From the IMG/VR virus record IMGVR_UViG_3300020200_002792: a stretch of DNA of 64,000 bases. One strand, written 5' to 3'. This document shows, piece by piece, positions 6,053-48,362 of the stretch. Below the pieces are notes generated by a model. That model searched no databases. It was given only the letters and a program-made list of their open reading frames with translations, and had not been told where the DNA came from. The first letter of the stretch is position 1. Every line of letters starts with the position of its first letter. Made by a program: the position numbers and the translations under genes. The DNA comes from a virus. Lineage: Duplodnaviria > Heunggongvirae > Uroviricota > Caudoviricetes.

Positions 6053-6260
6053 TGAAAATGGAAGAATAATTTACGAAAAATATCAAAGCTGGTATGATGT
6101 ACTCCTGGATGGATATAAAATGAGTCTAATGTTCATCCTTGTAGGAATGATAGGTTTAGCCATAACTCCAATTATGGTAATAATCAATTTTTATAGACCT
6201 AAATGTATAGGCTCTGGGTCTGTAAAACCACAAACGGATCATGAATATCATTGTTTATGA
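6036..6260 (+). CDS. small hydrophobic protein (questionable)
   Basis: Internal Met of ORF 5979..6260. Hydrophobic stretch LMFILVGMIGLAITPIMVIINF. Fills the PurA-like/MetRS gap. Confidence 0.25.
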   Translation, partial: YTKTCNENGRIIYEKYQSWYDVLLDGYKMSLMFILVGMIGLAITPIMVIINFYRPKCIGSGSVKPQTDHEYHCL

Positions 6261-7783
6261 GCAAATTTTTTCTTACTACAGCTATTGATTATCCAAATAG
6301 TCTACCCCATATCGGTACTGCCTTTGAAAAAATTGGTGCTTATGTTCAGGCTAGATATCGTCGTTTCAAAGGCGATGATGTATTTTTCCTAATGGGGAAT
6401 GATGAAAATACATGGAAGGTTGCCAAACGTGCTAATGAATTAGGAGAAGAACCTAAAGCATATGTTGATCGCATGGCTTTAGAATTTAAGAAAACTTGGA
6501 ACGCCCTTAATATATCTTATGATGATTTTATTCAAACTACCGAAAAAAGACATATTCAAGGAGTAGACTTTTTTCTGAGACGTGTTATTGATCAAGGATT
6601 CGTTTATAAAAAACAATATAAAGGACTTTATTGTGAAGGTTGCGAAGCCTTTAAAACCACAAAAGAAATTGAAGAAGGCCATTGTATAAATCATAAAAAT
6701 CAAGAACTTAAAGAAATAGAAGAAGAGAATTATTTTTTCAAGCTAAGTGAATTTAAACAACCTTTAATTGATTTGTTGACTTCAAAGCAATTATTAATAC
6801 AGCCGGAATCTCGTTACAACGAAATCATGTCTGTCCTTAATGATGACCTAGAAGATATTTCAATAAGCAGGCGAAATCTAGGATGGGGGATACCTTTTCC
6901 TGGTGATCCTAGCCAGGTCGTCTATGTCTGGTTTGATGCATTGCTTAATTACATGACAGGTTGCGGTTATCCTAATAAGTCTGAATGGTGGCCTGCTGAT
7001 ATTCATTTTATTGGCAAGGATATCACTCGCTTTCATTGTTTGATCTGGCCAGCAATGATCTTAGCTTACAATACCAAATCACCTGAAATAGCACAGCCAA
7101 AGGCAGTCTTTGCTCATGGTTTTGTTAAGAACAGGGGCACAAAAATAGGCAAATCTACAGGTAATTTTGTAGACCCGCTTGAAATTGTTAAGGAATTTGG
7201 TTGTGATGCTTATCGTTACTACTTCCTAAGCCGCTGTGATTATGGAAGCGATGGCGAATATGACCGTAAACACTTCATTGAAGTTTATAACGCAGATTTA
7301 GCAAATAATTTAGGAAATCTCCTCAGTCGTGTTATTAGCATGACAATTAAATACTTTAAAGGAGATATAAGTATATCTAACTATAAACCACGTAACATAA
7401 GTGGTTGTGATGATTACTGCAAAAACATAGAAGAATGCGAATATAAAGTTGTGCTGGAAAAAATCTGGCATATATTTAGTCTTATGAATGCTTACGTTGA
7501 TGAAAATAAACCTTGGGCACTAATCAAGGAAGATAAACAAAAAACAGCAGGTGTTTTATGTGAGCTAATAAATGGATTGCGATTAATGGCTATCCTTCTA
7601 AAACCTTTCCTACCAGATACGTCTCGTAAAATATATGAATCATTTAACTTTGGATATCCTTGGAGAAAATTAACATTAGATTCTTTTTCTTCAGACTATA
7701 ATTCAAGTAATAACATTAACATAATTGCTGTGGATAAACCATCTTCTTTATTCCCAAAATATGAAATAGAAACAGCTATATAA
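6251..7783 (+). CDS. metG: methionyl-tRNA synthetase catalytic core; no C-terminal tRNA-binding extension
   Basis: HIGH-type motif YPNSLPHIGTAFE; zinc knuckles CEGCE...GHCINH; KMSKS-type KIGKSTGN; WPADIHFIGKDI. Confidence 0.8.
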   Translation: MFMSKFFLTTAIDYPNSLPHIGTAFEKIGAYVQARYRRFKGDDVFFLMGNDENTWKVAKRANELGEEPKAYVDRMALEFKKTWNALNISYDDFIQTTEKRHIQGVDFFLRRVIDQGFVYKKQYKGLYCEGCEAFKTTKEIEEGHCINHKNQELKEIEEENYFFKLSEFKQPLIDLLTSKQLLIQPESRYNEIMSVLNDDLEDISISRRNLGWGIPFPGDPSQVVYVWFDALLNYMTGCGYPNKSEWWPADIHFIGKDITRFHCLIWPAMILAYNTKSPEIAQPKAVFAHGFVKNRGTKIGKSTGNFVDPLEIVKEFGCDAYRYYFLSRCDYGSDGEYDRKHFIEVYNADLANNLGNLLSRVISMTIKYFKGDISISNYKPRNISGCDDYCKNIEECEYKVVLEKIWHIFSLMNAYVDENKPWALIKEDKQKTAGVLCELINGLRLMAILLKPFLPDTSRKIYESFNFGYPWRKLTLDSFSSDYNSSNNINIIAVDKPSSLFPKYEIETAI

Positions 7784-7833
7784 TGCATGCTGACTTTTTC
7801 AGCCAATAATTAATCATAATACTAATATAGTTT

Positions 7834-8013
7834 ATGACCTTAGCTTTACATTTAGTGGAATTATACGATTCAGGAGCGATAACTGAATATGAGTTGTATG
7901 CAAGGGCGAGAGAAAAGGGATGTTGGATGGATTTACCAAAAGCTTATAGAAAAGAATATGAGAAGTGGGATAAGGAGCATCCAGCGGACAAATGTTTTTC
8001 AATAGAGGCATAA
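7834..8013 (+). CDS. small hypothetical protein (59 aa)
   Basis: Own translation MTLALHLVELYDSGAITEYELYARAREKGCWMDLPKAYRKEYEKWDKEHPADKCFSIEA. Lies in an otherwise empty 290-bp gap. Confidence 0.25.
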   Translation: MTLALHLVELYDSGAITEYELYARAREKGCWMDLPKAYRKEYEKWDKEHPADKCFSIEA

Positions 8014-8077
8014 AATGAAAGAACAATTTAAGTTTGAGGCTGTTTTTCCAGGTGGTGTGATTAATCCTGTATGAATA

Positions 8078-9544
8078 TCAACCTTCTTGGGCGGTGGGAT
8101 AGTCTAAAACAAACCTCATTTGCCCTGCATCCCAGATTCTGTCATATCCATTTAGTTGCATGATTTCCCATTCTTTCAAATTTTTGTCATAAAATGGCAT
8201 GCTAATAAGATTCTTTTTTTGAAAACTTAGCCTACTGTGCATTGTATTGTTTCTTATATTAAAGTATGAAAAACTAGGGCGGCTCACTCCATCAAACTTA
8301 AATCCAATAGCTTTGTATAACTTTCCTTGTGAATAACGTCTGTCAGCGTAAGTAATGATGCTGCCTTTATATTTAGTCCTAAAATGATTTAAAAGTTTAC
8401 TTGCACCACCAACTACAGATGTGAAATTTTTAGTGCAGAATCTAATCATTTCATATTTGTAACTTCTGTTAAAACGACTCCCATCAAATGTCATGCAAGC
8501 AACAATATTGCCATTATACTCTAATCCATATTTTATTTTGGCGTTGTCTGGACCTTGAATGTGATTTATTGTTAAAAACTCTTCCGTTTCATACCTTTTT
8601 AATTCAACAATTTTTGTCTTTCTTGCATAAATTTTATTGCTTTTGCCCAATAAGTTAATTACTTTAGACTTGATTATGTCTTTTTTATCTTCCCATTCTG
8701 TACTGTATATTTGCACTAAATTTATATTTTTTCCCAAGGCTGCATTGCATTTGTTATAATGATACTTTCTGCCTCTTACTGTTTCTAAATGCCAATATAT
8801 TCCATGATATTCAAATCCCAAATTTAGTTCTGGAAGGTAAATATCAATTTCTTTATCTTCTAATATTTTCCTATCATTTTGCAGTATCGTTCCATTATAA
8901 TTTTCTTTAATGTATTCGTATATTTCTTTCTGTGGTTGAGAAATTTTTATTATGGCCCCACATGAAGGACAACCATTCTTTAAATGAATGTGATTCCCGG
9001 CTCTTTGTTCAAAATCTCCATGAATCGGGCATGTTATAATTATTTTATCTGACATCCTAACGAAAACTGTTTTTGCATAACTATATTTGTTTTCATGGAT
9101 GACATTAGCTATATTGATGAGAGATGTTAGTGAATGTTTGCTTATTCCTCTGCCATTACAGAATTGGCATCCGTGCTTTAAATGTTGAGTTGGCAATTGA
9201 TGCTGGATACCGTGCTTTTCGCAAATGTATTTAATTTTAGTTTGTTTATTTTTATATTCGGTAATTGAATAATTATACTTGTTTCCCCATTTATCTTTTG
9301 CTTGATTTATAAATTGCTCATTAGTTTTTTGTAATGGGTGTTTTCTTTTTTCAATTCCACATTTATAACACCCTTGTTTTTGGTGTATATGTGCATAAGG
9401 CAATATTTCAAAAATGCCATGTTTACATTTTATTTTAACTTTGGTATGTGCGTTAACGTATTCAGTTAAACTATAATCGTAAACAGAGCCATGCACCGCT
9501 ATAGCTTCAGAAATAAAAACAGGGGTTGTCTTTTTATTAGACAT
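8078..9544 (-). CDS. homing-endonuclease-like protein: three zinc-ribbon repeats, a Vsr/DUF559-type nuclease core, and an unknown C-terminal domain
   Basis: Three repeats of KxxCxxHGxF...HLxxGCxxCxG. Then LPELNLGFEYHGIYWH...R...NxxK...LGKNINLV, resembling the Vsr/DUF559 restriction-endonuclease-like core. Confidence 0.45.
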   Translation of the reverse strand: MSNKKTTPVFISEAIAVHGSVYDYSLTEYVNAHTKVKIKCKHGIFEILPYAHIHQKQGCYKCGIEKRKHPLQKTNEQFINQAKDKWGNKYNYSITEYKNKQTKIKYICEKHGIQHQLPTQHLKHGCQFCNGRGISKHSLTSLINIANVIHENKYSYAKTVFVRMSDKIIITCPIHGDFEQRAGNHIHLKNGCPSCGAIIKISQPQKEIYEYIKENYNGTILQNDRKILEDKEIDIYLPELNLGFEYHGIYWHLETVRGRKYHYNKCNAALGKNINLVQIYSTEWEDKKDIIKSKVINLLGKSNKIYARKTKIVELKRYETEEFLTINHIQGPDNAKIKYGLEYNGNIVACMTFDGSRFNRSYKYEMIRFCTKNFTSVVGGASKLLNHFRTKYKGSIITYADRRYSQGKLYKAIGFKFDGVSRPSFSYFNIRNNTMHSRLSFQKKNLISMPFYDKNLKEWEIMQLNGYDRIWDAGQMRFVLDYPTAQEG

Positions 9545-9581
9545 TATTGACTATTTTAGCATTTTTTGTTTAAAAGTCAAT

Positions 9582-9640: not shown

Positions 9641-11116
9641 TTAAACGATAAAATTGGCTATTGACATTCTTGCATAGAATTTAGCACCTTCACGTAGAAG
9701 TTTCTTGCCATAGCGGGTTAAGATACCCTTTCTTGGGCAGAAACTCTCTGGGTCAAGAACAACAGGTGTCTGAGTTAACGGAACGTATGGACAGTAAAAA
9801 TATCCGCTATCCATATAACTGTCTCCCTTGTAACCAGCTAAAAGCTGATTGTTTGGGAATAATGGGTCTTTGTATAGACGCCATCTGTTGTTAATTGTTC
9901 CGACGTACTGGATGCCTAAGCTGCTGGTGAAAGTCTCAGAAGGACTTGGTGCAAAACCAGCGGTTGCGGTTTCGAACATGGAAGCGACTTCAGGAGAAGT
10001 AACAATCCAGTTGCAACCACCACGCAGGGTCTTTCTGTGGACGACTGCGGAAAGTTCGACTACTTTAACATAAAGAGACTCGTACTTCTCTTTAAAGGTT
10101 TCGCCCAAAGCGGTATTAAAGTCCCAAGCGGCAACTGTACCGGCATTGTTACGAAGGTCAGTTAAGACTTCACGGTCGATTTCCAGGTTAATTTCTTGAG
10201 CCAGAACTGCGGTCAATTCGGCTTCGGCGTCTAGGTTATGCTGAGAACGCAAGTCCTGTTGAGCCTCATAGCTCCAAACTGCCTTTAACTTACGGGTACG
10301 GGCAGCGATTTCTTCGGACTCGACAACCAAGTTAATCTCAGGCAAATCTTGGTTGCACTCCATGTTGTACTCATAAGAGACAACAATGTGGTTAGGACCG
10401 GCAGCAGATGTCCACTGAACAACAACTTCGCCAGTCTCAAGATCGATGCTGGAACCAGAAGATTGGCCCTTAGCAGTTAGACCAGAAACCAAGTCGGTGA
10501 AAGTAAATGTACCAGATGCATTAACAGTGAAGGTCTGGATAGCAACGGAACCATCATAGACTGTACCTGTTACTGTTCCGGCGAATACTGGAGTGTGCTG
10601 GAGTGGAGCATAAGTAGCTGTAGTGATAACACCAGCGTCAGTGCTAGAAACTTCATTCTGCACAAACTGAGAAGCGTACCAAATGTCCAGGTTAGCAGTA
10701 CCATCGGCCAACTGCTGCAATGAATTTGCGTCATCGCCAGGGAATCCGCCATTATTGGTTGCGCCCTGAATAGCACCTTTATTGCTGCTATAACGGAAAC
10801 GCAGGTAATATACTAAACCAGTTGGGCCTAGTAATGGCTGTACGGAAACGATCTTGTTAGCGATCAACTGAGGATAGATACGACGAACAAGAGGAATAGA
10901 AATTCTCTTGAACATAGCAATATCGCCAGTGTCGGTAGCGACTTCGTTCATAAGATACTGGTTTTCAAGCAGTACGGCGCAAGCCTCTTTTTGGTGGCGA
11001 TTTTCGGTGAAATTACCTTTGCGATCATATTCACCGATACCTTCTAGCAAGCCAGTTTGAGTCCATTTCTCAGACAGCTGACGAGCTTCGTTTAAAAATC
11101 TAGCATTAGCGTTCAT
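9641..11116 (-). CDS. major capsid protein, T4 gp23-like (HK97 fold)
   Basis: Blocks matching recalled T4 gp23: VRRIYPQLIANKIVSVQPLLGPTGLVYYLR (gp23 VRRAIPNLIAFDICGVQPMNSPTGQVFALR), QQDLRSQHNLDAEAELTAVLAQEINLEIDREV (AQDLRAVHGMDADAELSGILATEIMLEINREV), YKGDSYMDSGYFYCPYVPLT (YKGPNEMDAGIYYAPYVALT). Synteny with scaffold and protease. Confidence 0.85.
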   Translation of the reverse strand: MNANARFLNEARQLSEKWTQTGLLEGIGEYDRKGNFTENRHQKEACAVLLENQYLMNEVATDTGDIAMFKRISIPLVRRIYPQLIANKIVSVQPLLGPTGLVYYLRFRYSSNKGAIQGATNNGGFPGDDANSLQQLADGTANLDIWYASQFVQNEVSSTDAGVITTATYAPLQHTPVFAGTVTGTVYDGSVAIQTFTVNASGTFTFTDLVSGLTAKGQSSGSSIDLETGEVVVQWTSAAGPNHIVVSYEYNMECNQDLPEINLVVESEEIAARTRKLKAVWSYEAQQDLRSQHNLDAEAELTAVLAQEINLEIDREVLTDLRNNAGTVAAWDFNTALGETFKEKYESLYVKVVELSAVVHRKTLRGGCNWIVTSPEVASMFETATAGFAPSPSETFTSSLGIQYVGTINNRWRLYKDPLFPNNQLLAGYKGDSYMDSGYFYCPYVPLTQTPVVLDPESFCPRKGILTRYGKKLLREGAKFYARMSIANFIV

Positions 11117-11133
11117 ATTTTTCCTTTAATTAA

Positions 11134-12056: not shown

Positions 12057-12707
12057 TTATAATTCGCCTTTCACTTTGTTTGTTGCTTCTTTAATAACGC
12101 TACTTAATGCAGCAATAAATAAATCCTTGCTATTATGTATGCTCTCGTTCGTGATTTTTGTTGAAGAATCTGGCAGGAAATATTCTTTTTTAGAACCTGT
12201 AACTTTTTCACTGAATCCTGCATCTGGGCATGAAGCATCAGCAACAGCATCAAAGGTAATTAACTTATAGCTTTCACTGATTACTAATATGCCATTTTCA
12301 TTGACTTTTCCATTGCCAACACCACGACTACTGACACCAACGCTGACACCATTATTAAGCAATTCTTTTAATATAGAACCGTGTGGTGTAGTTAATATTT
12401 CAGCTTCACCCATTAATGTATTTCCATCCCACCATAGTTTTGTAATTAAATGGCTAGCTTTTTCGAAATGGATGATTGAATCTGCTGGATGATCAAGTTC
12501 ACCTAGAAGGCGTCTTGCTGCGACAACTTCTTGTAGTCTCTTTACATTTTCATCAAGAACTTCAAATGGATACATTCTTTTGTTCTTGTTAATTTGATTT
12601 GCCTCAGAAAACCTTCCTCTAAACTTCAGTAAATTTCTTTCACCTGTAGCTTCATTGATACAAAGTTCCAAGCCTGCATTAAAACTGTCTATTAAAAGCA
12701 TTTGCAT
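12057..12707 (-). CDS. prohead (head maturation) protease, gp21-like
   Basis: 216 aa (T4 gp21 is ~212). Sits first in a protease-scaffold-capsid order. GELDHP and SSRGVG blocks. Assignment rests mainly on synteny and size. Confidence 0.55.
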   Translation of the reverse strand: MQMLLIDSFNAGLELCINEATGERNLLKFRGRFSEANQINKNKRMYPFEVLDENVKRLQEVVAARRLLGELDHPADSIIHFEKASHLITKLWWDGNTLMGEAEILTTPHGSILKELLNNGVSVGVSSRGVGNGKVNENGILVISESYKLITFDAVADASCPDAGFSEKVTGSKKEYFLPDSSTKITNESIHNSKDLFIAALSSVIKEATNKVKGEL

Positions 12708-14588: not shown

Positions 14589-15035
14589 ATGAAAAAATTA
14601 CCTATATTGTTAATATTTGCTATAGGATGTAGAAATACGCCTCCTCCTGATTCAACTGGTATAGATGTTAAAGAAATACTTAAATTTGTTAATATTGAAA
14701 GAACTACTAGAAATCTTGAACCATTAGTTACAGATGACATTTTACAATTTGAAGCAGAAGATTATGCTGAAGCAATGGCTGCTATGAATAGAATGCAACA
14801 TGGTCTTAAAGGGCCATTAATGAAAAGATTAAGTGATGCAGGCTATAATGCTTCTGCTGCGGGAGAAAATATAGCTTGGAATTATAGGTCATCTTCGGCA
14901 GTTGTTAGGGGTTGGATGGATTCTTCTGGACATAGAGCTAATATATTAGGTAATTATCAAGATACTGGTATTGGTGTTGGTTATAACATTAAAGGCGAAC
15001 CATACTTTTGCCAGGTTTTTGGGAGAAAACGATGA
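14589..15035 (+). CDS. CAP/SCP (PR-1-like) domain lipoprotein
   Basis: Signal peptide with lipobox-like LIFAIGC. CAP motifs GENIAWN and SGHRANILG...GVG. Confidence 0.65.
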   Translation: MKKLPILLIFAIGCRNTPPPDSTGIDVKEILKFVNIERTTRNLEPLVTDDILQFEAEDYAEAMAAMNRMQHGLKGPLMKRLSDAGYNASAAGENIAWNYRSSSAVVRGWMDSSGHRANILGNYQDTGIGVGYNIKGEPYFCQVFGRKR

Positions 15036-16202: not shown

Positions 16203-16303
16203 GCGACTTCATCCTCTACCCTAAAGGGCAAGCCTCTGTTTGCCTCACTCGCTTCACTCGTTCGTCTGCACAGAGGCTTGTGCTAAAGCATAGAGGTTTT
16301 CGC
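16203..16303 (+). repeat. GC-rich hairpin element X, copy 1
   Basis: cttcatcctctaccctaaagggcaagc; 10-bp stem caagcctctg/cagaggcttg; 32-nt loop; ggttttcgccgc. Present as an inverted copy at 63396..63507 with compensatory stem changes. Confidence 0.6.
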
Positions 16304-26370: not shown

Positions 26371-26892
26371 TTAATCTCCTAAAGGTTTAATTAAACAAAA
26401 TATTCTTGACCCATTTAACTTAGGTTTCTGGTCAATAATAGCCTCTTCTCCTAATGCACTAATAACATAGTTCATTACTTTGAATCCTTCTTCTTTATGC
26501 GTAATTTCCCTATTTTTAAATTCTAGACTTAATTGCACTCTTTTGCCTTCAGATAAGAATTTTTTAATATTATTGATTTTAATATCGACATCGTGTATTT
26601 GTATAGCAGGACGCAGCCTGATTTCTTTAGTTTCAACAAAAGCTTCTCTTTGTTTTTTATGCTGTTCTTTTTCTTTCTGCTTCTGTTGATAGCGATACTT
26701 ATTATATTCAACGATGTGGCAGACGGGTGGATTGGCTTGAGGTACAACTTCAACTAGGTCTAAACCAGCTTCTTGGGCCATTGTCCTTGCTTTATCGGTA
26801 GGCATTATACCTATTTGTTCACCATCTCTTATTACCCTTACATTTGGAACTCTTATTTGAAAATTGACTCTGGTAAATTTCTTGTTTTGCAT
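26371..26892 (-). CDS. infC: translation initiation factor IF-3, bacterial type
   Basis: IRV..VRVI...GEQIGIM...AQEAGLDLVEV.P.ANPPVC.I..Y.KY and the C-domain KEIRLRP..DVDIK align along the whole length with bacterial IF3. Confidence 0.8.
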   Translation of the reverse strand: MQNKKFTRVNFQIRVPNVRVIRDGEQIGIMPTDKARTMAQEAGLDLVEVVPQANPPVCHIVEYNKYRYQQKQKEKEQHKKQREAFVETKEIRLRPAIQIHDVDIKINNIKKFLSEGKRVQLSLEFKNREITHKEEGFKVMNYVISALGEEAIIDQKPKLNGSRIFCLIKPLGD

Positions 26893-32694: not shown

Positions 32695-33244
32695 AAAAAT
32701 TGATAAAATCTTCTTGCTTAAAATCTTGTTTCATAAAATTTATCCATTTATGCACCCACTGAACATTGTCTTTGGTATAGCCTTTCAAAGAATCTATTCT
32801 ATCCAAAGAAGCCGTAGTTTCACCATACATATCCCCCTTTATTGTGTTTGCAAAAACTATAGGGAATCCAGACAAAGCACACAAGCCTTTTTGTTTCTCA
32901 AACAAATTATATAAAAATTTCTTAATTTCATCATTTGTATTTCCCAAACAAACATCAAACTTTTTACATTGTTTGATTCTAGAAAACATCCTTGATGGTA
33001 CTCTGTTTTTATTTTTTTGTTCTGAACATTTTCTACAAGATAAGCTTTTGCCTAATCTTAAATGCGAGCCATTTACAGGTTTCTCTAAACCACATTCACA
33101 TCTACAAAGCCAATATGCATTATAATCATTGCACTTGTATTCATTGTCACGCTTTAAAACTGTCCATTTACCAAAACATTTGCCTGCTAAATTTTCTGTC
33201 TTTTTACCACGCAAATTATCTCCAAACTGTGTATTCAACACCAA
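32654..33244 (-). CDS. HNH_3-type homing endonuclease, paralog of 47443..48036
   Basis: Cys pairs, then GLCALSG...ASLDRIDSLKGYTKDNVQWV...N..K. Same architecture and length as ORF 47443..48036. Confidence 0.55.
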   Translation of the reverse strand: MVLNTQFGDNLRGKKTENLAGKCFGKWTVLKRDNEYKCNDYNAYWLCRCECGLEKPVNGSHLRLGKSLSCRKCSEQKNKNRVPSRMFSRIKQCKKFDVCLGNTNDEIKKFLYNLFEKQKGLCALSGFPIVFANTIKGDMYGETTASLDRIDSLKGYTKDNVQWVHKWINFMKQDFKQEDFINFCVAVAKHKGNYNA

Positions 33245-33701
33245 TGTCTGAAATCAAAATCCCAAAACAATGCTCTATTTCATGCTGATGCACAATGGCA
33301 TCCGTATTAATAAATTCCAAGTTTATATCAGTAATAACTAATTTGTCAAGAGCAAGTAATTCTTTTCCAATAACTTTTATTTTATCAAACCTCTTCACAA
33401 AATAATATCGTAAATCACCGTTTTCTTTTTTTAATGACAAACATCCTTCTAAAGAATCACTTTTATTTCCAATGCCTTCGTAACTACAATTCAAGAAATA
33501 TCGATGCCCGCTGCCAGATTTAATTAAATACAATTTCCAAGGAATACCAACTTGCGAAGCAGAAATGCCTATGCCATTTTCTTTTGTACATAAATCTGAA
33601 AGCAATAAACAAATACGATAAATCTCCTTCAAATCACCTTCTGGACAATTTGCTATTTCCTTTGGTATGTCTGCAACAGGGACTAATTTCAATTTTTGCA
33701 T
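33216..33701 (-). CDS. def: peptide deformylase
   Basis: PDF motifs GIGISASQVG (GxGxAAxQ), EGCLS and QHEIEHCFG (HExxH). Confidence 0.8.
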   Translation of the reverse strand: MQKLKLVPVADIPKEIANCPEGDLKEIYRICLLLSDLCTKENGIGISASQVGIPWKLYLIKSGSGHRYFLNCSYEGIGNKSDSLEGCLSLKKENGDLRYYFVKRFDKIKVIGKELLALDKLVITDINLEFINTDAIVHQHEIEHCFGILISDIGVEYTVWR

Positions 33702-33702: not shown

Positions 33703-33960
33703 TTAACTACAAAAATGGTTTACAAGTGCGTCACTCTTTTTTTCAAGCCAACTCTTTAACCCTTCTTTATCACCTTTCAAATTAATAGGAATCTTCACTA
33801 TCACAGGTATAATATCGTCATCTAAAATCAAAAATCTATCTAACACATCACGAATAAGTTGAGATACATTATTTAAACCTTTTTGTTTAGATAAAGATTT
33901 CAATTTATCGTGCATCTCTGGTTCTAAAGATAAACTAACAACTTTAACGTTCCTGCTCAT
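33703..33960 (-). CDS. ribbon-helix-helix (CopG-like) DNA-binding protein, putative
   Basis: 85 aa; N-terminal beta-strand then two helices (VKVVSLSLEPEMHDKLKSLSKQKGLNNVSQLIRDVL). Confidence 0.35.
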   Translation of the reverse strand: MSRNVKVVSLSLEPEMHDKLKSLSKQKGLNNVSQLIRDVLDRFLILDDDIIPVIVKIPINLKGDKEGLKSWLEKKSDALVNHFCS

Positions 33961-34204
33961 AATTATTCCTTTGGAAAAAATGCTCTTTTAATTTTTCACG
34001 AAGTTTGAAGGCTTCCGATTCTTTCCTTTTTCTACGCCTCTTCCTAGACCTGCTTTCATATGCTTCATGATCCCTATATGCTTGTAAAACACCTGCTTTA
34101 CTACACTGCTTTTTAAATTCATTATGCATTTTCTTGAAAGCTACATCACGGTCATCATATGAATTCGATTTAGCTTCAATTCTTACCCTCACCATATTTG
34201 CCAT
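33944..34204 (-). CDS. rpsU: ribosomal protein bS21
   Basis: VRVRIEAK...DVAFKKMHNEFKKQCSKAGVLQAYRDHEAYE...RKRRRKRK, typical of bS21. Confidence 0.7.
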   Translation of the reverse strand: MANMVRVRIEAKSNSYDDRDVAFKKMHNEFKKQCSKAGVLQAYRDHEAYESRSRKRRRKRKESEAFKLREKLKEHFFQRNNYEQER

Positions 34205-41334: not shown

Positions 41335-44300
41335 TCAGCAAACAAGTTCATGTTCGCTCCTCAAAACACAAAGCCTAATATCATCTTCTTTACGTTTGGC
41401 TACCTTATGTCTTTCCCATTTAGGAGGACTTTCAAAAGTAAATCTCCTAAAGCCACCTGACGGCCCCTTTAACCTCATCCTTAACAACTTGCCTGGAATT
41501 ATTTCTTCTTTAAATCTTTCAAAGTCTTCTTTCCATACCTGAATCTGTTGCATTTCGCTATTTGCATCCTCTGCTTCGACTAACCAATATGTGTTGTTTT
41601 TCTTAGACATCATGCTCTTGACAGTCAAAATCCTTAATTCAACAGGATTATTTTCCTCTATACATACTTTAAAATCTTCAAATGTCATCCCACCACAATA
41701 GTCAGGACTCTTAGAAAGAGGATGATCCCATAAAAACCCATAATAAGCAAGTTGGGATGCTTCTAAAGATTCATAGTTTTCAAGAATCTTGTCAGCTATT
41801 TCATATTCTTCAGAAACAAAAGGTTTTTCTTCCAAACCAGTCTTAGAAGTTTCCAATCCTCTATAATAATTCTTTAAAACTGTCAAACCTTTCTTCAAAC
41901 TGTTCTTCATACAATAATCATAAATTTCCTTATTGTTATCTGGAAAATGCCATAACTCCTCTGGGACGATTGCCTCAATTTGTTCCTTCAATTCCTTTTG
42001 TCTTCTAATCCACCGCCTTCTTTTTTCATCAATTCTCTTCCTAGACTTCTTAACCCATTCAGCATACTTCAATAAATGGACAACATCTTCGCCAAAAATT
42101 CTAAGACCAATCAAAGGTTTAAGAACTGCCGTATCCGTACCAAATTTATTCAAAAAGTCATCAAAATCATTATAGGGTTGGTTATCTACTACCCTTTGGA
42201 CTACAGCATCTCCAATCCCAACAATATTAGAAATTCCATAATATATTTCTTCATCAACAATAGCTGCTTTAGCTTTAGATTTGCTAATATCGATTGGATT
42301 TACCTTGATATTATGCAATTCAGCTTCCATTTTGTATTCTTTGAGTTTGTCAACCTTATCTTCACAAACAAGACTAGATGTATAAAACTCAATTGGATAA
42401 TGAGCTTTAAAATAAAGAAGCCGCATAGCAATAACACAGTAACCGCAAGAATGACTATTATGGACTAGAATGCCATTAGCAATATAATTATGATTATTTT
42501 TAATACAAATATCATAAGTTTTATCTTTGCCGCATTTCTTAATTGATTTTACTTGCGTCCAAAAAATATTACTGTTAACTATTTTCAATAATTCAACATG
42601 CTTAAAAGTTTTAGCAATTATTTCAATAGTTTTTCTTAAAAAAGACTTCTTGTTTTTATCTTTCAAAAGAATTCTATGAGTCAGTCCACATTTATCTAAG
42701 CAATATCTGCCATACGACTTTCTAATTTCAAGGAGATAAGGCATTACAAGATTATATGGCAGCATATCACGTTCGTTACAGAAGATACTATATTTATAGA
42801 GAAAACTTTGATCACATTTTTTAGAACACATATATTTGCCTATACTTTTAGCAAATCTTTCCCTCCAATTATACCCTCCAACTTTAACTATATAACCTAT
42901 TTTTCTCATTCCCCGATAATTAAAAAATTTCTTATTTAACACAGAAACAAAACCTATTCTGAGCAAAAGTTCTTGCACTTGCTCTGCTAATTTCAAAGAA
43001 GATGTGGCATAGTAAGTGTTGCTTCTATCTACACATCCATCCCCTTCCCACATTCGTCCAAGCAATAACATGATTTGCTTAGAAGATAATTGAAAAACCC
43101 AATCAGGTAAAAATTTTTGAGGAGCTTTTTTCCAACACAAATCATTTTTCCTGGCCCATTGCAACAAATTAGTGGGAACATATTTTTTATAACTTCCAGA
43201 ATGGCCTGAATTAATACAGATTACCCACTTATCTTTGTAGTATTGCTTAGTAATATGAGACTTTCCAAATTTCTTAGCTGCCTTTACAAAATCATCAACA
43301 TAAAATTCATCTTGATTAAAAAAATACAAAGAACTAGGATGACAGGTATTACCTTCTGTAATTAAACCAGCTAAAACTATCAGTTCATGACTTTCAACTT
43401 TATGAGTGGCTACACAATCTCTTTTGGAAGGTAAAGCTACCCAATCACCAAGCTTCAAATCACTTAAAGGAATCCATCCTATATCAGTTAAAAATTTATG
43501 TTTTTCTGTACATTTAATAGCATGGTGAGATTTAGTGATTAATTCAAAAATTGATTTTTCACCATTATCAAAAACATCTTCTATAACAGATATTTCAAAT
43601 TTGCCATTCTTATCTAAAGAACCAGTCTTCATTCCCTTTTTAGCTTCACGGACCTTAAATGGTATTCCAAATTCATCGTATAAAACAGAATCGCCATGCA
43701 AGCACTTGTTGAAGCTGTACCCACTAAATGCCTCTATTTGAGTCCAAAATTCATTCATCTTTTCCAAACTATATCCCAATCGTTTCATGCCATTCTCAAT
43801 GAAACGATTTTTATAAGTCTGGAATAAATCAAGCCTCTTTTTGGATATAGCTTTTCTGACAATCTCACAATCTTTTAATGGCACATCACCTATTTGATTC
43901 AATATTCGCATGATTTGTTCTTGATAGATCATACAACCATAAGTTTCTCCCAAAATAGGTTTCAAAAGAGGATGAAGTCCATAAGCTTCACCCTTTTTTC
44001 TTTTTATATAAACTTCTGATTGTGCAATGGCCCCTGGACGATAAACGCTAAGATACGCCATCAAATCATTGAACCCATCAACACCGCCTTTTTTAACCAA
44101 TTGTCTCATGCCTTCGCTATCAAACTGAAATATGCCTCTTAAATCTGCTTTATTTGCCATTTCAATCGATTTAGGAGCATTCAAATAAGAAGTATCTGAC
44201 CAATCTTTCTTTCCAGGCTTTGCACAAATACTAGTTAAACCATGTCTATCTTTTACTAATTTTTTAGCTATAGCTATTTGTTTTAAATTAGACAAAGACA

Positions 44301-45048
44301 ACAAATCAAACTTAACCAAACCAACAGGCCCTAAATCCTGACCATGTAAACCTTCCACCCAAGCTGTACAAGGCAAATCATCTTTGTCTTTAACCAATGG
44401 GACAAAATTATTGATAGGTTTGCTGGATATAATTAATCCTCCAGCATGCTTACCCATACTATTGTTTCTATGCAAAAGCTTTTTAGCCGCTGTTGCTACT
44501 TCTGGATGATCCTCACAATACTTCTTCATTTCTGGAAATAACTCAACAGCTTTATCCCAGGTTAATGTTTTGCCTTCATCGTCCTTTAAACCCAATTTTT
44601 TAGTTACAGCCGTTACTTCATCTTTATCACAACTATACACTCTGGCCATATTTTGAAGTGCTGATTTAATGCCGAAAGTGTTATAGCTACCAATATTGGC
44701 TACAAATTCTTGGCCATAAAATTTTGGTGCCCAGATGTTCTTCAGATAATCTCGAACTTCTGGAAGAAAGTCGCAGTCCGAATCAGGCATGTCACCGTAA
44801 ACGTAGGTAGGCTCTTTGTCTATCTCTAAATCGTCTACTATGCCTAAAAGATATGGGATTAAGAGGTTTTTTTGATTATAAGGATATCTGATTTGCTTTT
44901 TGTGTAAATCTAGAAAATAATCATGCTTGTTTTGAGCATCTATTTCTTTTAATTCCAGGGCTAATCTCTTAGTATACTTCTCTTCTTTAAGCCCTTTACT
45001 TTCTAACCTAGCATTTAGAATTATAATCAATTCATCTTTAGCTTCCAT
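41335..45048 (-). CDS. dnaE: DNA polymerase III alpha (DnaE), C-terminal part; contains an intein. DnaE-homologous start is Met87 (44788..44790); aa 1-86 are a degenerate duplicate of an N-half segment
   Basis: MGKHAGGLIISS (AGKHAGGVVIAP), GLVKFDLLSLSNL (GLVKFDFLGLRTL), GIFQFDSEGMRQL...YRPGA (GVFQLESRGMKDL...FRPGP), FSGYSFNK[intein]SHSCGYCVIAMRLLYFKAHYPIEF ([32 protein letters not shown]). MPDSDCDF matches MPDFDVDF. Confidence 0.85.
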   Translation of the reverse strand: MEAKDELIIILNARLESKGLKEEKYTKRLALELKEIDAQNKHDYFLDLHKKQIRYPYNQKNLLIPYLLGIVDDLEIDKEPTYVYGDMPDSDCDFLPEVRDYLKNIWAPKFYGQEFVANIGSYNTFGIKSALQNMARVYSCDKDEVTAVTKKLGLKDDEGKTLTWDKAVELFPEMKKYCEDHPEVATAAKKLLHRNNSMGKHAGGLIISSKPINNFVPLVKDKDDLPCTAWVEGLHGQDLGPVGLVKFDLLSLSNLKQIAIAKKLVKDRHGLTSICAKPGKKDWSDTSYLNAPKSIEMANKADLRGIFQFDSEGMRQLVKKGGVDGFNDLMAYLSVYRPGAIAQSEVYIKRKKGEAYGLHPLLKPILGETYGCMIYQEQIMRILNQIGDVPLKDCEIVRKAISKKRLDLFQTYKNRFIENGMKRLGYSLEKMNEFWTQIEAFSGYSFNKCLHGDSVLYDEFGIPFKVREAKKGMKTGSLDKNGKFEISVIEDVFDNGEKSIFELITKSHHAIKCTEKHKFLTDIGWIPLSDLKLGDWVALPSKRDCVATHKVESHELIVLAGLITEGNTCHPSSLYFFNQDEFYVDDFVKAAKKFGKSHITKQYYKDKWVICINSGHSGSYKKYVPTNLLQWARKNDLCWKKAPQKFLPDWVFQLSSKQIMLLLGRMWEGDGCVDRSNTYYATSSLKLAEQVQELLLRIGFVSVLNKKFFNYRGMRKIGYIVKVGGYNWRERFAKSIGKYMCSKKCDQSFLYKYSIFCNERDMLPYNLVMPYLLEIRKSYGRYCLDKCGLTHRILLKDKNKKSFLRKTIEIIAKTFKHVELLKIVNSNIFWTQVKSIKKCGKDKTYDICIKNNHNYIANGILVHNSHSCGYCVIAMRLLYFKAHYPIEFYTSSLVCEDKVDKLKEYKMEAELHNIKVNPIDISKSKAKAAIVDEEIYYGISNIVGIGDAVVQRVVDNQPYNDFDDFLNKFGTDTAVLKPLIGLRIFGEDVVHLLKYAEWVKKSRKRIDEKRRRWIRRQKELKEQIEAIVPEELWHFPDNNKEIYDYCMKNSLKKGLTVLKNYYRGLETSKTGLEEKPFVSEEYEIADKILENYESLEASQLAYYGFLWDHPLSKSPDYCGGMTFEDFKVCIEENNPVELRILTVKSMMSKKNNTYWLVEAEDANSEMQQIQVWKEDFERFKEEIIPGKLLRMRLKGPSGGFRRFTFESPPKWERHKVAKRKEDDIRLCVLRSEHELVC
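42457..43704 (-). mobile_element. LAGLIDADG intein in DnaE at the GYGFNK/SHS site (416 aa)
   Basis: Starts CLHGDSVLYD, ends ILVHN followed by S. LAGLIDADG blocks ELIVLAGLITEGNT and LLLGRMWEGDGCV. Junction codons checked against the DNA. Confidence 0.8.
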
Positions 45049-45075
45049 CCATCATTTATATCGTTTACTTAATTT

Positions 45076-45279
45076 TCAGTCAATACTAAATAGACCCCCA
45101 ATAGAATTTGGATAAGCACTTAAATCATCCCCCTGATACTCGCTAACTCTCACAACAGACAACCATTTATTGCTTTTCATATATTTATTCGCTTCTTCCT
45201 CATCAATAAAAACCTTAGTTAAAAACCAAGGAGAAAAAAGCCCACCATAATCATCTTCATAAATTAAGTAGACTTTCAT
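45076..45279 (-). CDS. hypothetical small protein
   Basis: 67 aa, overlaps the upstream gene stop. Confidence 0.3.
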   Translation of the reverse strand: MKVYLIYEDDYGGLFSPWFLTKVFIDEEEANKYMKSNKWLSVVRVSEYQGDDLSAYPNSIGGLFSID

Positions 45280-47345
45280 TTGAATCCCATTGACCTTTCT
45301 ATATCCTGGTCAGAAGAAATGTATTCCTTCATTGAAGACAAAGTAAAAATAGCATCTTCGTATTCATCACCAAGGATTATAACGGCAACAAACAATTCTT
45401 TCAAATGTGCAATACTAAATCCATTCGTATCTTCAATCCATTTAGAAAGAGGAACTTTTAATTCTTTTACTTTATCACCCATCAAATATTCAAAATACAA
45501 TTTTCTACTTTCTTCATTTGGATGACCTATCTTGAACCTCTTATCAAACCTGCTTGGCCTATTAATGACTCTTGGACCTAATTCTTCTGGATAATTAGTA
45601 GTTGCCAAGAATACGCACTTGTGGACACATTCAACACCATCCAATATATTCAAAACACCAGATTCATCACCATAATTATGCATTATCGCATCTAAATCTT
45701 CCATCAAAACTACAACAGGTGTTTCTGGCTGAATTGTTCTGAATATTCTCATGCCTTCTATGAAAATATGAGGATGACAAAATTTAACTACTATGCCGCC
45801 TCTTTCAACCACATCTTTCATAATAAGTTGAATAGAACTCGATTTACCACTATTATGATGAACAATATAATCAGAAGTTAAATATAAATGATCACCCGAA
45901 ATTGTAAACCCATAAAACTTCCCTTTGCCAAGAGATTCAATTTTTCTAATGCCTGTTCTTAACGGGTCTTTATTAGGCATTCCAACTAGTGCTTTTTTTC
46001 TTGCAAGTTTTACAGGAATTCTAGAAATATCACCAAATATGTTAAGCCGCCAATAATCTCCTTCAAAGTCTATTTCTTTAATTCCTTTTTTTACTTTTTT
46101 AATTGTCACACCAAAACCAAGACTTCTAGCCAATTCAACTATCTGCCAAGCCAACCTTTCTCTTTTCTGAATAATTTCAAAATAATCTTTATAACCTTTT
46201 TTCTTAAATTTAGCACTTTTCCTCCAGGTAGCAACACAATAACCTCCATCAGTATCAACTAACCCTGCCAATAAACCTAGCCTTTGCTGCACTGAAGAAT
46301 ACATATAATTATCTGGGATGTGCTTATCCTCCAATACATTTAAATTTCTTAATTCATTTAAAACATAATTGCCGCCTTTTGATCCATCGCCAACTATATT
46401 CAAAGCCCAACAAATAGAATCTGTTTTACGCCTTTCTGTTAAAGATAGTCCAAAACAAAATGCATATTTTCTCAAATATTCTTTTATTTCCTGGTCAGCA
46501 GAATTAACCTCAGTTTTACCTTCAGAACCATCACCCAGCCAAACTCCTAAAAAATAAGGTTCCAATGGCAATTCTTGTTTTTTTTCAAAATTCACTCCAA
46601 TTCTGTACAACTTAAACGACCATTGAGAGCATTTGGTCAAATTCATATAATCATTTAATTTAATATTCATTACAGGAGGAAATCTCAATTCAACGCTACT
46701 AGTTCTTCTTAAACTTAAAACATGATTGCCATTTACTACAAAAGGTTCTCCCTTATTAGGATATACTCTGTACATTTCATCGATACCATGCCTTAATTCT
46801 AATACCCTACGTGGCTTAGAATCAGGCCCCATAAGTAAATCACCAACTTCTACGTCTTCTACTTTCTTAGTTTTCCCATCAAACATTCTAATCAATGTGC
46901 CTTTTCCATGACACCCAGCAGGGCCGTATAATATCACGCCCCTTTTGTATGCTAAACCAAATTCTTTAAATACCGCTTCCTTATCCCAGAATTTTTTAAT
47001 CTCATCAACAACCTTTTCTGAATTAGTTTGAGGAAATCTAATAAGACCTTCAGTTTTTACTGGAACTTTTTCAAAATATATACCAACTCCAGGAGCTTGA
47101 AGAATGTCATAAACTCCAGGAATAAGCTTATCTATTGTGTGACTAGCAGGTATGAAAGTTCTTTTGTCAGAAGTAGTCCATTGAACTAAATTGCCAAGCT
47201 TAACTTGTTGTTCTTCTTTTTCTTCTGACATATCACTACCACGACAAGAAGTAGCATATGCTTTATTGTAAGGTTTATATGCTGGTTCTTTTTCTGCCGC
47301 ACTTTTTAATAACTCAATTAACTCACTATCTTCTTCTCTTGACAT
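45276..47345 (-). CDS. classic-clade AAA ATPase with an intein in the Walker A loop
   Basis: Extein reads VILYGPAG[intein]SGKSSSIQ (Walker A), then VVVLMEDLD (Walker B) and second region of homology ATTNYPEELGPRVINRPSRFDKRF. Confidence 0.7.
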   Translation of the reverse strand: MSREEDSELIELLKSAAEKEPAYKPYNKAYATSCRGSDMSEEKEEQQVKLGNLVQWTTSDKRTFIPASHTIDKLIPGVYDILQAPGVGIYFEKVPVKTEGLIRFPQTNSEKVVDEIKKFWDKEAVFKEFGLAYKRGVILYGPAGCHGKGTLIRMFDGKTKKVEDVEVGDLLMGPDSKPRRVLELRHGIDEMYRVYPNKGEPFVVNGNHVLSLRRTSSVELRFPPVMNIKLNDYMNLTKCSQWSFKLYRIGVNFEKKQELPLEPYFLGVWLGDGSEGKTEVNSADQEIKEYLRKYAFCFGLSLTERRKTDSICWALNIVGDGSKGGNYVLNELRNLNVLEDKHIPDNYMYSSVQQRLGLLAGLVDTDGGYCVATWRKSAKFKKKGYKDYFEIIQKRERLAWQIVELARSLGFGVTIKKVKKGIKEIDFEGDYWRLNIFGDISRIPVKLARKKALVGMPNKDPLRTGIRKIESLGKGKFYGFTISGDHLYLTSDYIVHHNSGKSSSIQLIMKDVVERGGIVVKFCHPHIFIEGMRIFRTIQPETPVVVLMEDLDAIMHNYGDESGVLNILDGVECVHKCVFLATTNYPEELGPRVINRPSRFDKRFKIGHPNEESRKLYFEYLMGDKVKELKVPLSKWIEDTNGFSIAHLKELFVAVIILGDEYEDAIFTLSSMKEYISSDQDIERSMGFK
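45852..46913 (-). mobile_element. LAGLIDADG intein in the P-loop of the AAA ATPase (354 aa; coordinates from codon arithmetic)
   Basis: Starts CHGKGTLIRMFDG, ends YIVHHN followed by SGKS. LAGLIDADG blocks YFLGVWLGDGSEG and LGLLAGLVDTDGGY. Confidence 0.7.
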
Positions 47346-47442
47346 TAAAAAACTCCATCCGATTATAGATGGAGTATAAGAAATAAAAATAATTATTACA
47401 AGGCCAAAAAATAACCCCAGCTTTTTATGGCTAGGGTTATTG

Positions 47443-48036
47443 CTAAGGGAAAGTCAAATAACTTGAAACTGCTTTACAAAACTCAACCAAATTATTCTCA
47501 GGCCATTCAAATTTGGCAAGTTGTGCTATTAAAGCTACAAACTGAATATTGCCTTTTATATAACCTTTACCACTATCTATCCTATCTAAACTTGCCCTGT
47601 CGGGAGTGCGTGGTAATTTTGAACCAATAGTAGGCAAATTTTTAAGTTGCCATCCAGTATACGGGCAAACACCTTTTTGTTTTTCCCACTGTTCTTTAAG
47701 ATCAATTAATGTAACGCCACATTCTTTATTATTTCTTCTTATAATGTTTCGATAATGCCAACGAAAAGGCGAATATTCATCTGGTGTCCGTACTTTTAAA
47801 TTTTCAGGTCTACCACCACCTAAATGTTTATAATTATCCTTTCCTGCACATCTAAGAGAACAATAAATTTTCCTGCCTAGCTTTTCATTTCTTGATAGCT
47901 CACCAACTTCTCTTAAAAATGTTTTACCACAAATAAAACACTGAACTTCTTTTTTCATAAAAACCTCCATTATAACATAGTAAGTTATAATGGAGGTTGT
48001 CGAAATTTTATTGGAGGCGTTGGGGATTGAACCCAA
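47443..48036 (-). CDS. HNH_3-type homing endonuclease, paralog of 32654..33244; true start probably an internal Met near 47955
   Basis: CFICGK...CSLRCAG...GVCPYTG...ASLDRIDSGKGYIKGNIQFV...N. The N-terminal 25 codons of the ORF overlap the tmRNA 3' end. Confidence 0.55.
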   Translation of the reverse strand: MGSIPNASNKISTTSIITYYVIMEVFMKKEVQCFICGKTFLREVGELSRNEKLGRKIYCSLRCAGKDNYKHLGGGRPENLKVRTPDEYSPFRWHYRNIIRRNNKECGVTLIDLKEQWEKQKGVCPYTGWQLKNLPTIGSKLPRTPDRASLDRIDSGKGYIKGNIQFVALIAQLAKFEWPENNLVEFCKAVSSYLTFP

Positions 48037-48362
48037 GTGAACGTGTAATGATGATTAAGCCTCTACATGCTTATCTCCTTGTTCATTACAGTTTTAGAAC
48101 TACAAAGAGCAAAAGTCCACAAACTGTTACGACATATTTTCTCATCTAAAAGCAAGTCGTCCGCTAATAGACCAGCTAGATTTTACATCAGGCTTTTGGA
48201 CGCATCCAGCATTAGCTTCCTGAGCCTGTTGGCCGACTTAAGCAGCCAAAGAGTAAGAAACTTCCTCAATTAAGAGTAATCGCATTTTATACTGGCCTTG
48301 CGATTAACCAGTGCATGCCACATTAACCACGCAACTTACCGTTTCGAAACCAATTCGCCCCC
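48012..48362 (-). ncRNA. ssrA: tmRNA (ssrA), ~351 nt; ends approximate
   Basis: RC reads 5' GGGGGCGAAUUGGUUUCGAAACGG...GUGGCAUGCACUGG (cf. E. coli GGGGCUGAUUCUGGAUUCGACGGG...GUGCAUGCCGAGG) and ends ...CUUGGGUUCAAUCCCCAACGCCUCCA (T-arm plus 7-bp acceptor pairing with the 5' end, discriminator A). Internal tag frame ...GAG GAA GUU UCU UAC UCU UUG GCU GCU UAA = EEVSYSLAA-stop (E. coli ends YALAA). Confidence 0.65.

Follow-up and report, generated by a model that had tools for sequence, protein, structure and literature searches.

Bacterial-type translation genes in what is probably part of a large T4-capsid-type phage genome from a freshwater metagenome

The 64,000-nucleotide stretch analysed here (IMG/VR record IMGVR_UViG_3300020200_002792; hereafter the window) carries five translation genes of bacterial type, namely metG for methionyl-tRNA synthetase (MetRS), infC for translation initiation factor IF3, def for peptide deformylase (PDF), rpsU for ribosomal protein bS21 and ssrA for transfer-messenger RNA (tmRNA). 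We consider it likely that the window is part of a large phage genome with a T4-type capsid, recovered from a freshwater metagenome and belonging to an environmental clade that includes the deposited genome LR756511.1, and that the five genes are genuine, intact and resident in the phage. An earlier note on this DNA had listed the same genes, and all of them turned out to be real, intact-looking and located where the note had placed them (profile or covariance-model matches with E values from 1e-9 to 1e-162). Their identities and bacterial type were likewise correct, as judged from Pfam, TIGRFAM and Rfam matches. The note had also described the set as unusually complete and its combination with IF3 and tmRNA as noteworthy, which we regard as overstated. 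Such genes have been reported together as a feature of huge phages as a class (PMC7162821), and LR756511.1 already carries four of the five (IF3, bS21, PDF and tmRNA) in the same order.

Phage nature of the window

Located between metG and infC is a gene for a major capsid protein of T4 type (Gp23), which a scaffold-position gene separates from the gene for an S77-type prohead protease (Table 1). The protease gene is syntenic with the scaffold and major capsid protein genes in LR756511.1, the closest relative of the window, which is a 595,163-bp genome deposited as 'uncultured phage'. The earlier note had taken the region for phage rather than bacterial chromosome, and this assignment stands with the capsid and prohead protease genes inside the interval. 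About 97% of the window is coding, mostly on one strand, and the majority of the open reading frames (ORFs) have no family assignment. No tRNA, rRNA or ribosomal-protein operon was detected in the 64 kb by ARAGORN, Rfam and ORF profile searches.

In several samples, metagenome contigs encode proteins identical to those of the window; the longest of these contigs has 74,250 bp. One of the samples bears the JGI prefix Ga0194132, which also occurs in the title of a metagenome-assembled genome reading 'K_Offshore_80m'. The relatives sharing the gene module of the window are 187-686 kb in size. Neither a megablast search with 24.5 kb of the window nor a blastn search with the tmRNA returned a match among 50,697 phage records, so that relatives are visible only by protein or covariance-model comparison.

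Gene order conserved among very large phages

The gene order of the window is kept at 310-360 kb of LR756511.1, with protein identities of 37-69%. The syntenic set comprises an aldehyde dehydrogenase, IF3, a thiamine pyrophosphate (TPP)-dependent enzyme, PDF, a small ribbon-helix-helix (RHH) protein, bS21, two paralogs of ~380 amino acids (aa), DnaE, an AAA ATPase, the tmRNA (122 bits in LR756511.1) and a PrkA-DUF444-SpoVR triad. Protein identities are 48-62% for IF3, bS21, RHH, PDF and the DnaE and PrkA-DUF444-SpoVR genes that flank the tmRNA. On a 286-kb environmental contig, the paralog pair, bS21, a small ORF and PDF are found downstream of DnaE, followed at some distance by PspA and then by the TPP enzyme and IF3. 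A 686-kb contig has the same order from the paralogs, bS21 and PDF to the TPP enzyme and IF3, with PspA not called, and a 673-kb contig contains the portion with bS21, the small ORF and PDF. The N-terminal region of DnaE, used as a probe, identified 13 IMG/VR loci on contigs of 13-572 kb, and an Rfam tmRNA lies no more than 10 kb from DnaE in eight of them.

Thus bS21, PDF, IF3 and tmRNA belong to the old gene stock that a clade of very large phages has kept by vertical descent, and they are no special assembly of the window. The order of IF3, bS21 and PDF is kept on the 286-686-kb contigs at only 40-68% identity and the tmRNA stems covary (see below), which points to long-term purifying selection. 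LR756511.1 differs from the window in several respects: it has no detectable MetRS, it encodes DnaE in one undivided gene that has no intein and is preceded by the tmRNA cassette, and its capsid module is ~200 kb from IF3, whereas the distance in the window is 16 kb.

The bS21-RHH-PDF operon

The rpsU product scored 35.4 bits against the Pfam model of bS21 (cut-off 27) and 30.9 bits against TIGR00030 (cut-off 28.95). Its core, FKKQCSKAGVL...HEAYES, aligns with ribosome-bound bS21 chains in PDB (E=3e-4), the conserved pattern being FK-x-C-x-KAGVL...E-x-YE. Among the 50,697 deposited phage records, tblastn found this bS21 lineage in LR756511.1 only. A strong ribosome-binding site, AAGGAG, precedes the gene. 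The RHH gene overlaps rpsU by 17 nt and def begins 1 nt downstream of the RHH gene, and the three genes therefore appear to form one operon. The RHH protein and its LR756511.1 counterpart, encoded in the corresponding position, share 48% identity; the slot between bS21 and PDF in relatives is occupied by a small ORF, the family of which varies.

PDF matched the Pfam Pep_deformylase model at 47.8 bits (cut-off 22.8). Its catalytic and metal-binding motifs are intact (GIGISASQ at residue 43, EGCLS at 85 and HEIEH at 140), alignments with PDB deformylases span all three of them (E=2e-4), and 17 residues follow the third motif. We found 77 environmental homologs at 36-54% identity, none with an organism name, on contigs of up to 691 kb, and tblastn detected this PDF lineage in only LR756511.1 and one Vibrio phage among the deposited phage records.

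Directly upstream of bS21 in every sampled relative are the two ~380-aa paralogs, encoded on the minus strand of the window at 34208-35350 and 35671-36816 and sharing ~19% identity with each other. Checked as possible translation genes, they gave no match to Pfam, PHROG or PDB profiles.

IF3 and its upstream neighbor

The infC product possesses both IF3 domains (IF3_N at residues 9-77 and IF3_C at residues 86-170) and scored 166.5 bits against TIGR00168 (cut-off 60). It is 52% identical to the product of the syntenic gene in LR756511.1 and 48-68% identical to ~80 environmental clusters, the longest contigs of which reach 595 kb; identity then drops sharply, to at most 44% for bacterial IF3. 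Homologs occur in 102 of the 50,697 deposited phage records, many of which are short unannotated contigs labelled as phage. With IF3 as the sole query, a scan of IMG/VR gave no match.

The ATG of infC is located 3 nt past the stop codon of the TPP-dependent decarboxylase gene, and this adjacency is kept on the 286- and 686-kb contigs. IF3 appears to be translationally coupled to the upstream gene. The ATG start of the phage gene contrasts with the AUU start through which infC of Escherichia coli is autoregulated. The TPP enzyme (26896-28542, minus strand) is closest to indolepyruvate/phenylpyruvate decarboxylase, with a score of 329 bits that is below the cut-off. An aldehyde dehydrogenase gene (23942-25396, minus strand) lies 1 kb downstream of infC, and both enzymes are conserved in LR756511.1. 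They may constitute an auxiliary metabolic pair, that is, a two-step pathway from aryl-pyruvate to the acid.

tmRNA

The ssrA gene encodes a one-piece tmRNA that matched RF00023 at 82.5 bits (cut-off 47) over the entire model (positions 1-374 of 374). The earlier note was correct in listing the gene; its boundaries, 48012-48362 with no strand given, are replaced by those of the Rfam match on the minus strand (Table 1). The acceptor stem, GGGGGCG/CGCCUCC, contains the alanine identity pair G3.U70, and A73 is present. The tag frame GAG GAA GUU UCU UAC UCU UUG GCU GCU UAA encodes EEVSYSLAA, which is in register with six tags called by ARAGORN in relatives, including ANPEFAMAA, AENTYALAA, DKTNFAMAA, ANTFAVAA and ANDYVALAA. 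The resume codon was assigned by alignment.

When the acceptor and T stems of eight phage tmRNAs were compared, 97.9% of the cells were paired, compensatory changes were seen in 8 of the 12 pairs, and G3.U70 was present in all eight. None of 500 shuffles reached the observed covariation score, and slid controls were 51-63% paired. About 28 nt before the mature 5' end is a candidate sigma-70-like promoter, and the terminator-like hairpin directly 3' of the gene is far more stable than its shuffled counterparts (z = -7.95). With both elements, the tmRNA looks like an independent transcription unit.

ARAGORN called neither a tmRNA nor a tRNA in the window. It missed two of ten phage tmRNAs detected with Rfam, the one in the window and the one at 17571-17929 of locus L017 (68.7 bits); for the former, the glutamate resume codon may be the explanation. 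The tmRNAs in the main survey of huge phages were called with ARAGORN (PMC7162821), and phage tmRNAs may thus be undercounted where this program alone is used.

MetRS, the variable member

The metG ORF scored 446.7 bits against TIGR00398 (cut-off 336.35), with Pfam matches to tRNA-synt_1g (E=1e-90) and Anticodon_3 (E=5e-11). Its score against the full-length equivalog PRK12267 was 540, below the cut-off of 598, because the C-terminal domain is absent. A database protein of 508 aa (P0001) is identical to the window MetRS and begins at ATG 6257; this codon is probably the true start. In place of the class-I signatures HIGH and KMSKS, the window protein reads HIGT and KIGKS. KPW is present, and the PW motif of the anticodon domain is conserved. 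HIGT and K-[IAV]-S-K-S are common to all aligned homologs, including those of Isosphaera, Gemmatales, Pirellulales and Singulisphaera. The zinc knuckle reads C128-x2-C131...C145-x2-H148, and no aligned sequence deviates at its four conserved residues (C126, C129, C143 and H146 when numbered from ATG 6257). Members of this MetRS subfamily, those of Planctomycetota included, normally have ~510-545 aa and lack the C-terminal tRNA-binding domain. The term 'MetRS core' used in the earlier note is therefore an accurate description, but of the ordinary architecture of the subfamily and not of a phage truncation. We also rejected the idea of a truncated or decaying copy, since neither the length nor the HIGT and K-x-S-K-S motifs depart from what is usual in the subfamily.

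No MetRS match was detected in LR756511.1, and the neighborhood of its capsid module has no counterpart to positions 1-9544 of the window. MetRS homologs were found in 31 of the 50,697 deposited phage records, many being short unannotated contigs labelled as phage, and the best match among deposited phages was that of Microcystis phage MaAM05 (40.7%). Closer relatives, at 58-64% identity, are on environmental contigs. One of them (58%) is encoded on a 670-kb contig between DnaB-like, PolA, gp32 and RecA genes, neighbors that identify the contig as another huge phage in which metG has a different context. The nearest cellular homologs belong to Planctomycetota (43-49% identity), which account for 12 of the top 13 species-genome matches and for all named matches of the database search; other phyla do not exceed 42%.

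The GC content of metG (0.34) equals that of the remainder of the phage, which argues for an old residence. Genomes of Planctomycetota are GC-rich. Recent capture from a planctomycetal host is unlikely, given the identity of 43-49%, the GC content of 34% and the closer copies on environmental contigs, including at least one huge phage. The gene is on the strand opposite to the other four, in a variable region beside the capsid module. On the sequence comparisons, MetRS appears to be the variable member of the five, of a separate lineage shared among huge phages, with its nearest cellular relatives in Planctomycetota.

Table 1. Positions of the features discussed, in window coordinates unless another locus is named
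Feature	Position	Strand	Basis
Methionyl-tRNA synthetase (metG), 'core' form with a single zinc knuckle	6251..7783	+	TIGR00398, Pfam, motifs; probable start ATG 6257
Major capsid protein Gp23, T4-type	9641..11116	-	Pfam Gp23 E=2e-83; 77.7% identity to LR756511.1
Prohead core serine protease, Peptidase_S77	12057..12707	-	Pfam E=9e-29; 59% identity to LR756511.1
Translation initiation factor IF3 (infC)	26371..26892	-	IF3_N + IF3_C, TIGR00168
Peptide deformylase (def), divergent phage-clade type	33216..33701	-	Pfam Pep_deformylase, motifs
Small ribbon-helix-helix protein	33703..33960	-	Pfam RHH_1 E=2e-4
Ribosomal protein bS21 (rpsU), first of three operon genes	33944..34204	-	Pfam, TIGR00030, PDB bS21
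DnaE C-terminal gene: catalytic palm, fingers, HhH, one intein	41335..45048	-	Pfam DNA_pol3_alpha 100-259, DNA_pol3_finger, HHH_6
Classic-clade AAA+ ATPase (FtsH/CDC48-like) with Hom_end intein	45276..47345	-	Pfam AAA, Hom_end_hint, Hom_end; NCBIfam modules
Free-standing HNH endonuclease	47443..47958	-	PHROGs phrog_3322 / phrog_1035
Intrinsic-terminator-like hairpin + U5, directly 3' of tmRNA	47959..47995	-	12-bp stem, dG -15.1 kcal/mol
One-piece tmRNA (ssrA), tag EEVSYSLAA, GAG (Glu) resume codon	48009..48362	-	Rfam RF00023
Candidate sigma-70-like promoter of tmRNA, TTGATT-16-TAGAAT	48391..48418	-	Consensus scan, consensus match only
DnaE N-terminal gene: PHP, palm start, one intein	49983..52547	-	Pfam PHP, DNA_pol3_alpha, Intein_splicing, LAGLIDADG_3
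AAA+ ATPase beside tmRNA in locus L005	L005 30173-31177		

Alternative interpretations

The five genes span at least four transcription units on both strands, and genes for the capsid, metabolism and replication lie among them. An operon-like arrangement is seen for bS21-RHH-PDF only, and ssrA stands alone in the replication module. Motifs resembling Shine-Dalgarno sequences precede 27 of 87 ORFs against a background of ~8%, indicating moderate use. The region could in principle be a bacterial chromosome or island with ordinary host housekeeping genes for translation, since all five genes are of bacterial type and DnaJ, PrkA-DUF444-SpoVR, DnaE and the metabolic enzymes look bacterial as well. 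We regard this as virtually excluded. The capsid and prohead protease genes, with the scaffold-position gene between them, rule it out; rRNA, tRNA and ribosomal-protein operons are missing from the window and most of its ORFs are family-less; its nearest relatives are the deposited 595-kb phage genome and IMG/VR viral contigs; and IF3 is no more than 44% identical to named bacterial homologs while PDF has no named homolog at all. More deserving of attention is the view that the genes are independent accessory 'morons', the co-occurrence of which reflects the enrichment of translation genes in very large phages, with some copies perhaps decaying or having acquired a new function. The dispersal described above, with unrelated genes in between, fits such a view, as do the absence of MetRS from LR756511.1 and its different context in another huge phage, the scores of PDF below the equivalog cut-offs (given below) and the unique KIGKS loop of MetRS. 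Nevertheless, the order of IF3, bS21 and PDF is constant on the 286-686-kb contigs, the tmRNA stems covary and all catalytic and metal-binding motifs are intact, and we therefore hold independent morons to be rather unlikely.

The tmRNA needs to be considered separately, as it might mainly be cargo or a target of mobile elements, or a mimic of an integration site, and not serve ribosome rescue. The 3' ends of bacterial ssrA genes are common integration sites. An HNH gene follows the tmRNA directly in the window, L017 and L023/24, the cassette lies inside a split DnaE in most relatives and upstream of a fused DnaE in LR756511.1 and L016, and a large serine-recombinase-like gene is present at 16825-18861. 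All this would be compatible with a mobile origin, but the tmRNA is full length, has a promoter-like site and a terminator of its own and contains an in-frame tag ending in LAA, and across eight lineages its stems show compensatory changes and an invariant G3.U70. Such intactness and covariation indicate selection on the function of the RNA and not on a 3' attachment fragment, and we find the mobile-element explanation improbable compared with a tmRNA that acts in ribosome rescue.

Several observations weigh against the reading that we prefer, in which the five genes are intact and functional parts of a large phage. The analysis covers 64 kb, a limited portion of a phage genome. bS21 is divergent and barely passes the TIGR00030 cut-off. 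PDF does not reach the equivalog and subfamily cut-offs of NCBIfam (44.9 vs 103.95 and 38.4 vs 125), which marks it as divergent, and KIGKS, with glycine in place of serine, is found in the window MetRS and in no other aligned homolog. The window contains no gene for tRNA-Met, tRNA-fMet or any other tRNA, nor fmt, IF1 or HPF; IF1, HPF and SmpB are also missing among the small ORFs at 32-64 kb. No SmpB was found among the window ORFs by profile searches and precomputed Pfam matches. Two SmpB queries likewise gave no match in LR756511.1, although they did find SmpB in 68 phage records, including the Lak phages and five other huge-phage records (with genomes of 634, 636, 642 and 735 kb among the matches). 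Activity of the tmRNA would thus depend on how well it fits the SmpB of the host. The dispersed arrangement without obvious co-regulation weakens the idea of a concerted 'initiation package'. Each step of the putative function outlined below draws on known family roles and on published models of huge phages and bS21 phages.

Two-gene DnaE, the tmRNA cassette and mobile elements

The tmRNA of the window lies in a 5-kb cassette between two halves of DnaE, the N-terminal gene forming its upstream flank and the C-terminal gene its downstream flank. Besides the tmRNA, the cassette comprises a 219-aa ORF, a 261-aa gene on the opposite strand, the HNH gene, the AAA+ ATPase gene and a 67-aa ORF. The HNH ORF as listed extends to 48036, with an in-frame ATG at 47958, so that the gene starts directly 3' of the tmRNA terminator. 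The division of DnaE into two genes around a variable cassette is seen again in at least six IMG/VR lineages (L017, L018/19, L022, L023/24, L027 and L028), and a fused DnaE with the cassette upstream is found in LR756511.1 (1183 aa, intein-free) and L016. The tail of the N gene and the head of the C gene match one and the same segment of the fused DnaE, that is, a diverged duplication. A gene fractured together with a split intein has a precedent (PMC2677866). This explanation for the split DnaE is not supported, since the two genes have overlapping homology to the fused DnaE and no ends resembling IntN or IntC. An assembly chimera was rejected, given the same arrangement in at least six independent IMG/VR lineages.

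The AAA+ ATPase is best matched by the AAA modules of FtsH, CDC48 and proteasome ATPases and not by clamp loaders. It adjoins the tmRNA in five lineages, namely the window, LR756511.1, L016 (7991-8851), L017 (19058-19927) and L023/24 (L023 17265-18254); the coordinates for L005 are given in Table 1. L017 and L023/24 likewise have a homolog of the HNH gene immediately 3' of their tmRNA. The 219-aa ORF (49382-50041, minus strand) adjoins the N-terminal DnaE gene, 38 kb from the capsid gene of the window, in a region of raised GC content (0.386). It is 71% identical to the product of the gene immediately downstream of the LR756511.1 capsid gene (L029 22799-23341), no homolog was seen in L016-L028, and its relocation points to a lineage-specific rearrangement.

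Four inteins lie within 20 kb, in the N- and C-terminal DnaE genes, the AAA ATPase gene and the PrkA gene (58466-61876), and each has a LAGLIDADG or Hom_end domain. The homologs in LR756511.1 are free of all four, and the intein in the N-terminal DnaE gene is also present in L017. At least five free-standing homing-type endonucleases, either HNH or NUMOD3 with a TnsA-like domain, are encoded at 8078-9544, 32654-33244, 40464-41306, 47443-47958 and 52544-53527, immediately beside the conserved genes for capsid, PDF, C-terminal DnaE, tmRNA and N-terminal DnaE. No counterparts of the inteins or free-standing endonucleases were found in the LR756511.1 stretches compared (310-360 kb and 500-550 kb). 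The triad of PrkA kinase, DUF444 (YeaH-like) and SpoVR-like genes (55619-61876, minus strand) is located just upstream of DnaE in almost every relative (L016-L028 and L005). Earlier work mentions PrkA and SpoVR in connection with at least one jumbo phage (PMC8504454).

The translation-gene set itself is less unusual than the two-piece DnaE enclosing the tmRNA, the four inteins and the absence of SmpB. It is tempting to speculate that the tmRNA without an SmpB gene, the split DnaE, the AAA+ ATPase and the HNH gene form a functional unit and are not the result of an insertion accident, although we would give this idea little credence. Such a unit may take either of two forms: 1) a tagging-and-unfolding pathway run by the phage, in which the phage AAA+ protein recognises the tmRNA tag, or 2) a link between ribosome-stalling status and replication. 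If this were true, the unit and the ancestral bS21-PDF-IF3 block together would amount to a semi-autonomous layer of control over host translation.

Other features of the window

GC content is 0.435 across 10001-12000, where the capsid and scaffold genes lie, and ~0.33 elsewhere. At 16216-18861 on the minus strand are genes for a 678-aa protein with a weak N-terminal resolvase (serine recombinase) domain and, following it, a 202-aa protein with an integrase repeat unit. This pair marks a break in the synteny with LR756511.1, between the capsid block and the IF3 block. The adenylosuccinate synthetase at 4928-6052 is short and scored under the cut-off, and the nucleotide-sugar dehydrogenase at 22346-23182 (278 aa) covers part of its family model only. 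Further host-like genes encode a CAP-domain protein (14589-15035), dUTPase (18946-19464) and a full-length DnaJ (20769-21812). PspA/IM30 is encoded at 29442-30188 and an SPFH/Band-7 protein at 37019-38200.

Putative role during infection

Products of the five genes may top up or replace host factors that limit translation during infection. MetRS would maintain the supply of charged initiator and elongator tRNA-Met. At the 30S subunit, IF3 and bS21 would favor or sustain initiation on phage mRNAs, and PDF would process the formylated chains that arise in large numbers during the burst of phage protein synthesis. The tmRNA, in which G3.U70 and A73 are conserved, could be alanylated by the host alanyl-tRNA synthetase and, together with host SmpB, would free ribosomes stalled on broken mRNAs. 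The tag ending in YSLAA would then direct the stalled products to ClpXP-type proteases of the host. The five genes probably act independently and not as one machine. That the genes serve to take over initiation and to rescue ribosomes is a reasonable proposal, in agreement with the published model.

Relation to known phage systems

Huge phages (>200 kb) with IF1 or IF3, S21, PDF, aminoacyl-tRNA synthetases and tmRNA/SmpB were described by Al-Shayeb et al. (2020; PMC7162821), who proposed an interception of host translation. The window resembles them in its probable origin from a very large phage, the T4-type capsid and the gene categories (aminoacyl-tRNA synthetase, IF3, bS21, PDF and tmRNA). 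Genomes of 634-735 kb and the Lak phages encode SmpB, whereas LR756511.1, the representative of the present clade, does not, and the clade presumably uses the SmpB of its host. Compared with the bacterial tmRNA-SmpB system (RF00023), the tmRNA of the window is alike in being one-piece and in having a tRNA-like domain with G3.U70, A73 and a T-arm as well as a tag ORF that ends in LAA followed by UAA. It differs in lacking an SmpB partner in the window or LR756511.1, in its resume codon (GAG for glutamate instead of the usual GCN) and in its site in a phage replication module.

Phages of freshwater Bacteroidetes with genomes of up to 331 kb also encode a bS21, the core of which is conserved while its basic C-terminal tail is divergent, and likewise come from a freshwater lake (Chen et al. 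2022; PMC9723584). Their bS21 gene is part of the structural module (terminase, capsid, protease and portal) and is expressed late, and the phage protein has been proposed to substitute into host ribosomes (PMC9723584). The bS21 gene of the window, in contrast, heads the bS21-RHH-PDF operon in a replication and metabolic block, 23 kb from the capsid gene.

The PDF of the window shares with cyanophage PDF (Frank et al. 2013, reference 21 of PMC7162821) its phage-encoded type-1 nature, all metal-binding and catalytic motifs being present in the window protein. Nevertheless, tblastn revealed no similarity to the cyanophage protein, and the window PDF belongs to a separate environmental clade with many contigs of 167-691 kb. 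The cyanophage enzyme reportedly has a similarly short C-terminus. As for MetRS, the enzymes of Microcystis phage MaAM05 and the huge phages LR756504.1 and LR745206.1 are also class-I MetRS encoded by large phages; the window MetRS is only 31-41% identical to them and represents a different lineage.

By database comparison, the combination of genes in the window appears to be rare among deposited phages and typical for this clade. The set adds one more huge-phage lineage to a phenomenon that has already been described, and the finding as stated changes little by itself. Since bS21-PDF-IF3 and the tmRNA appear to be ancient and syntenic and not sporadic captures, the clade suits tests of ribosome reprogramming by phage initiation factors.

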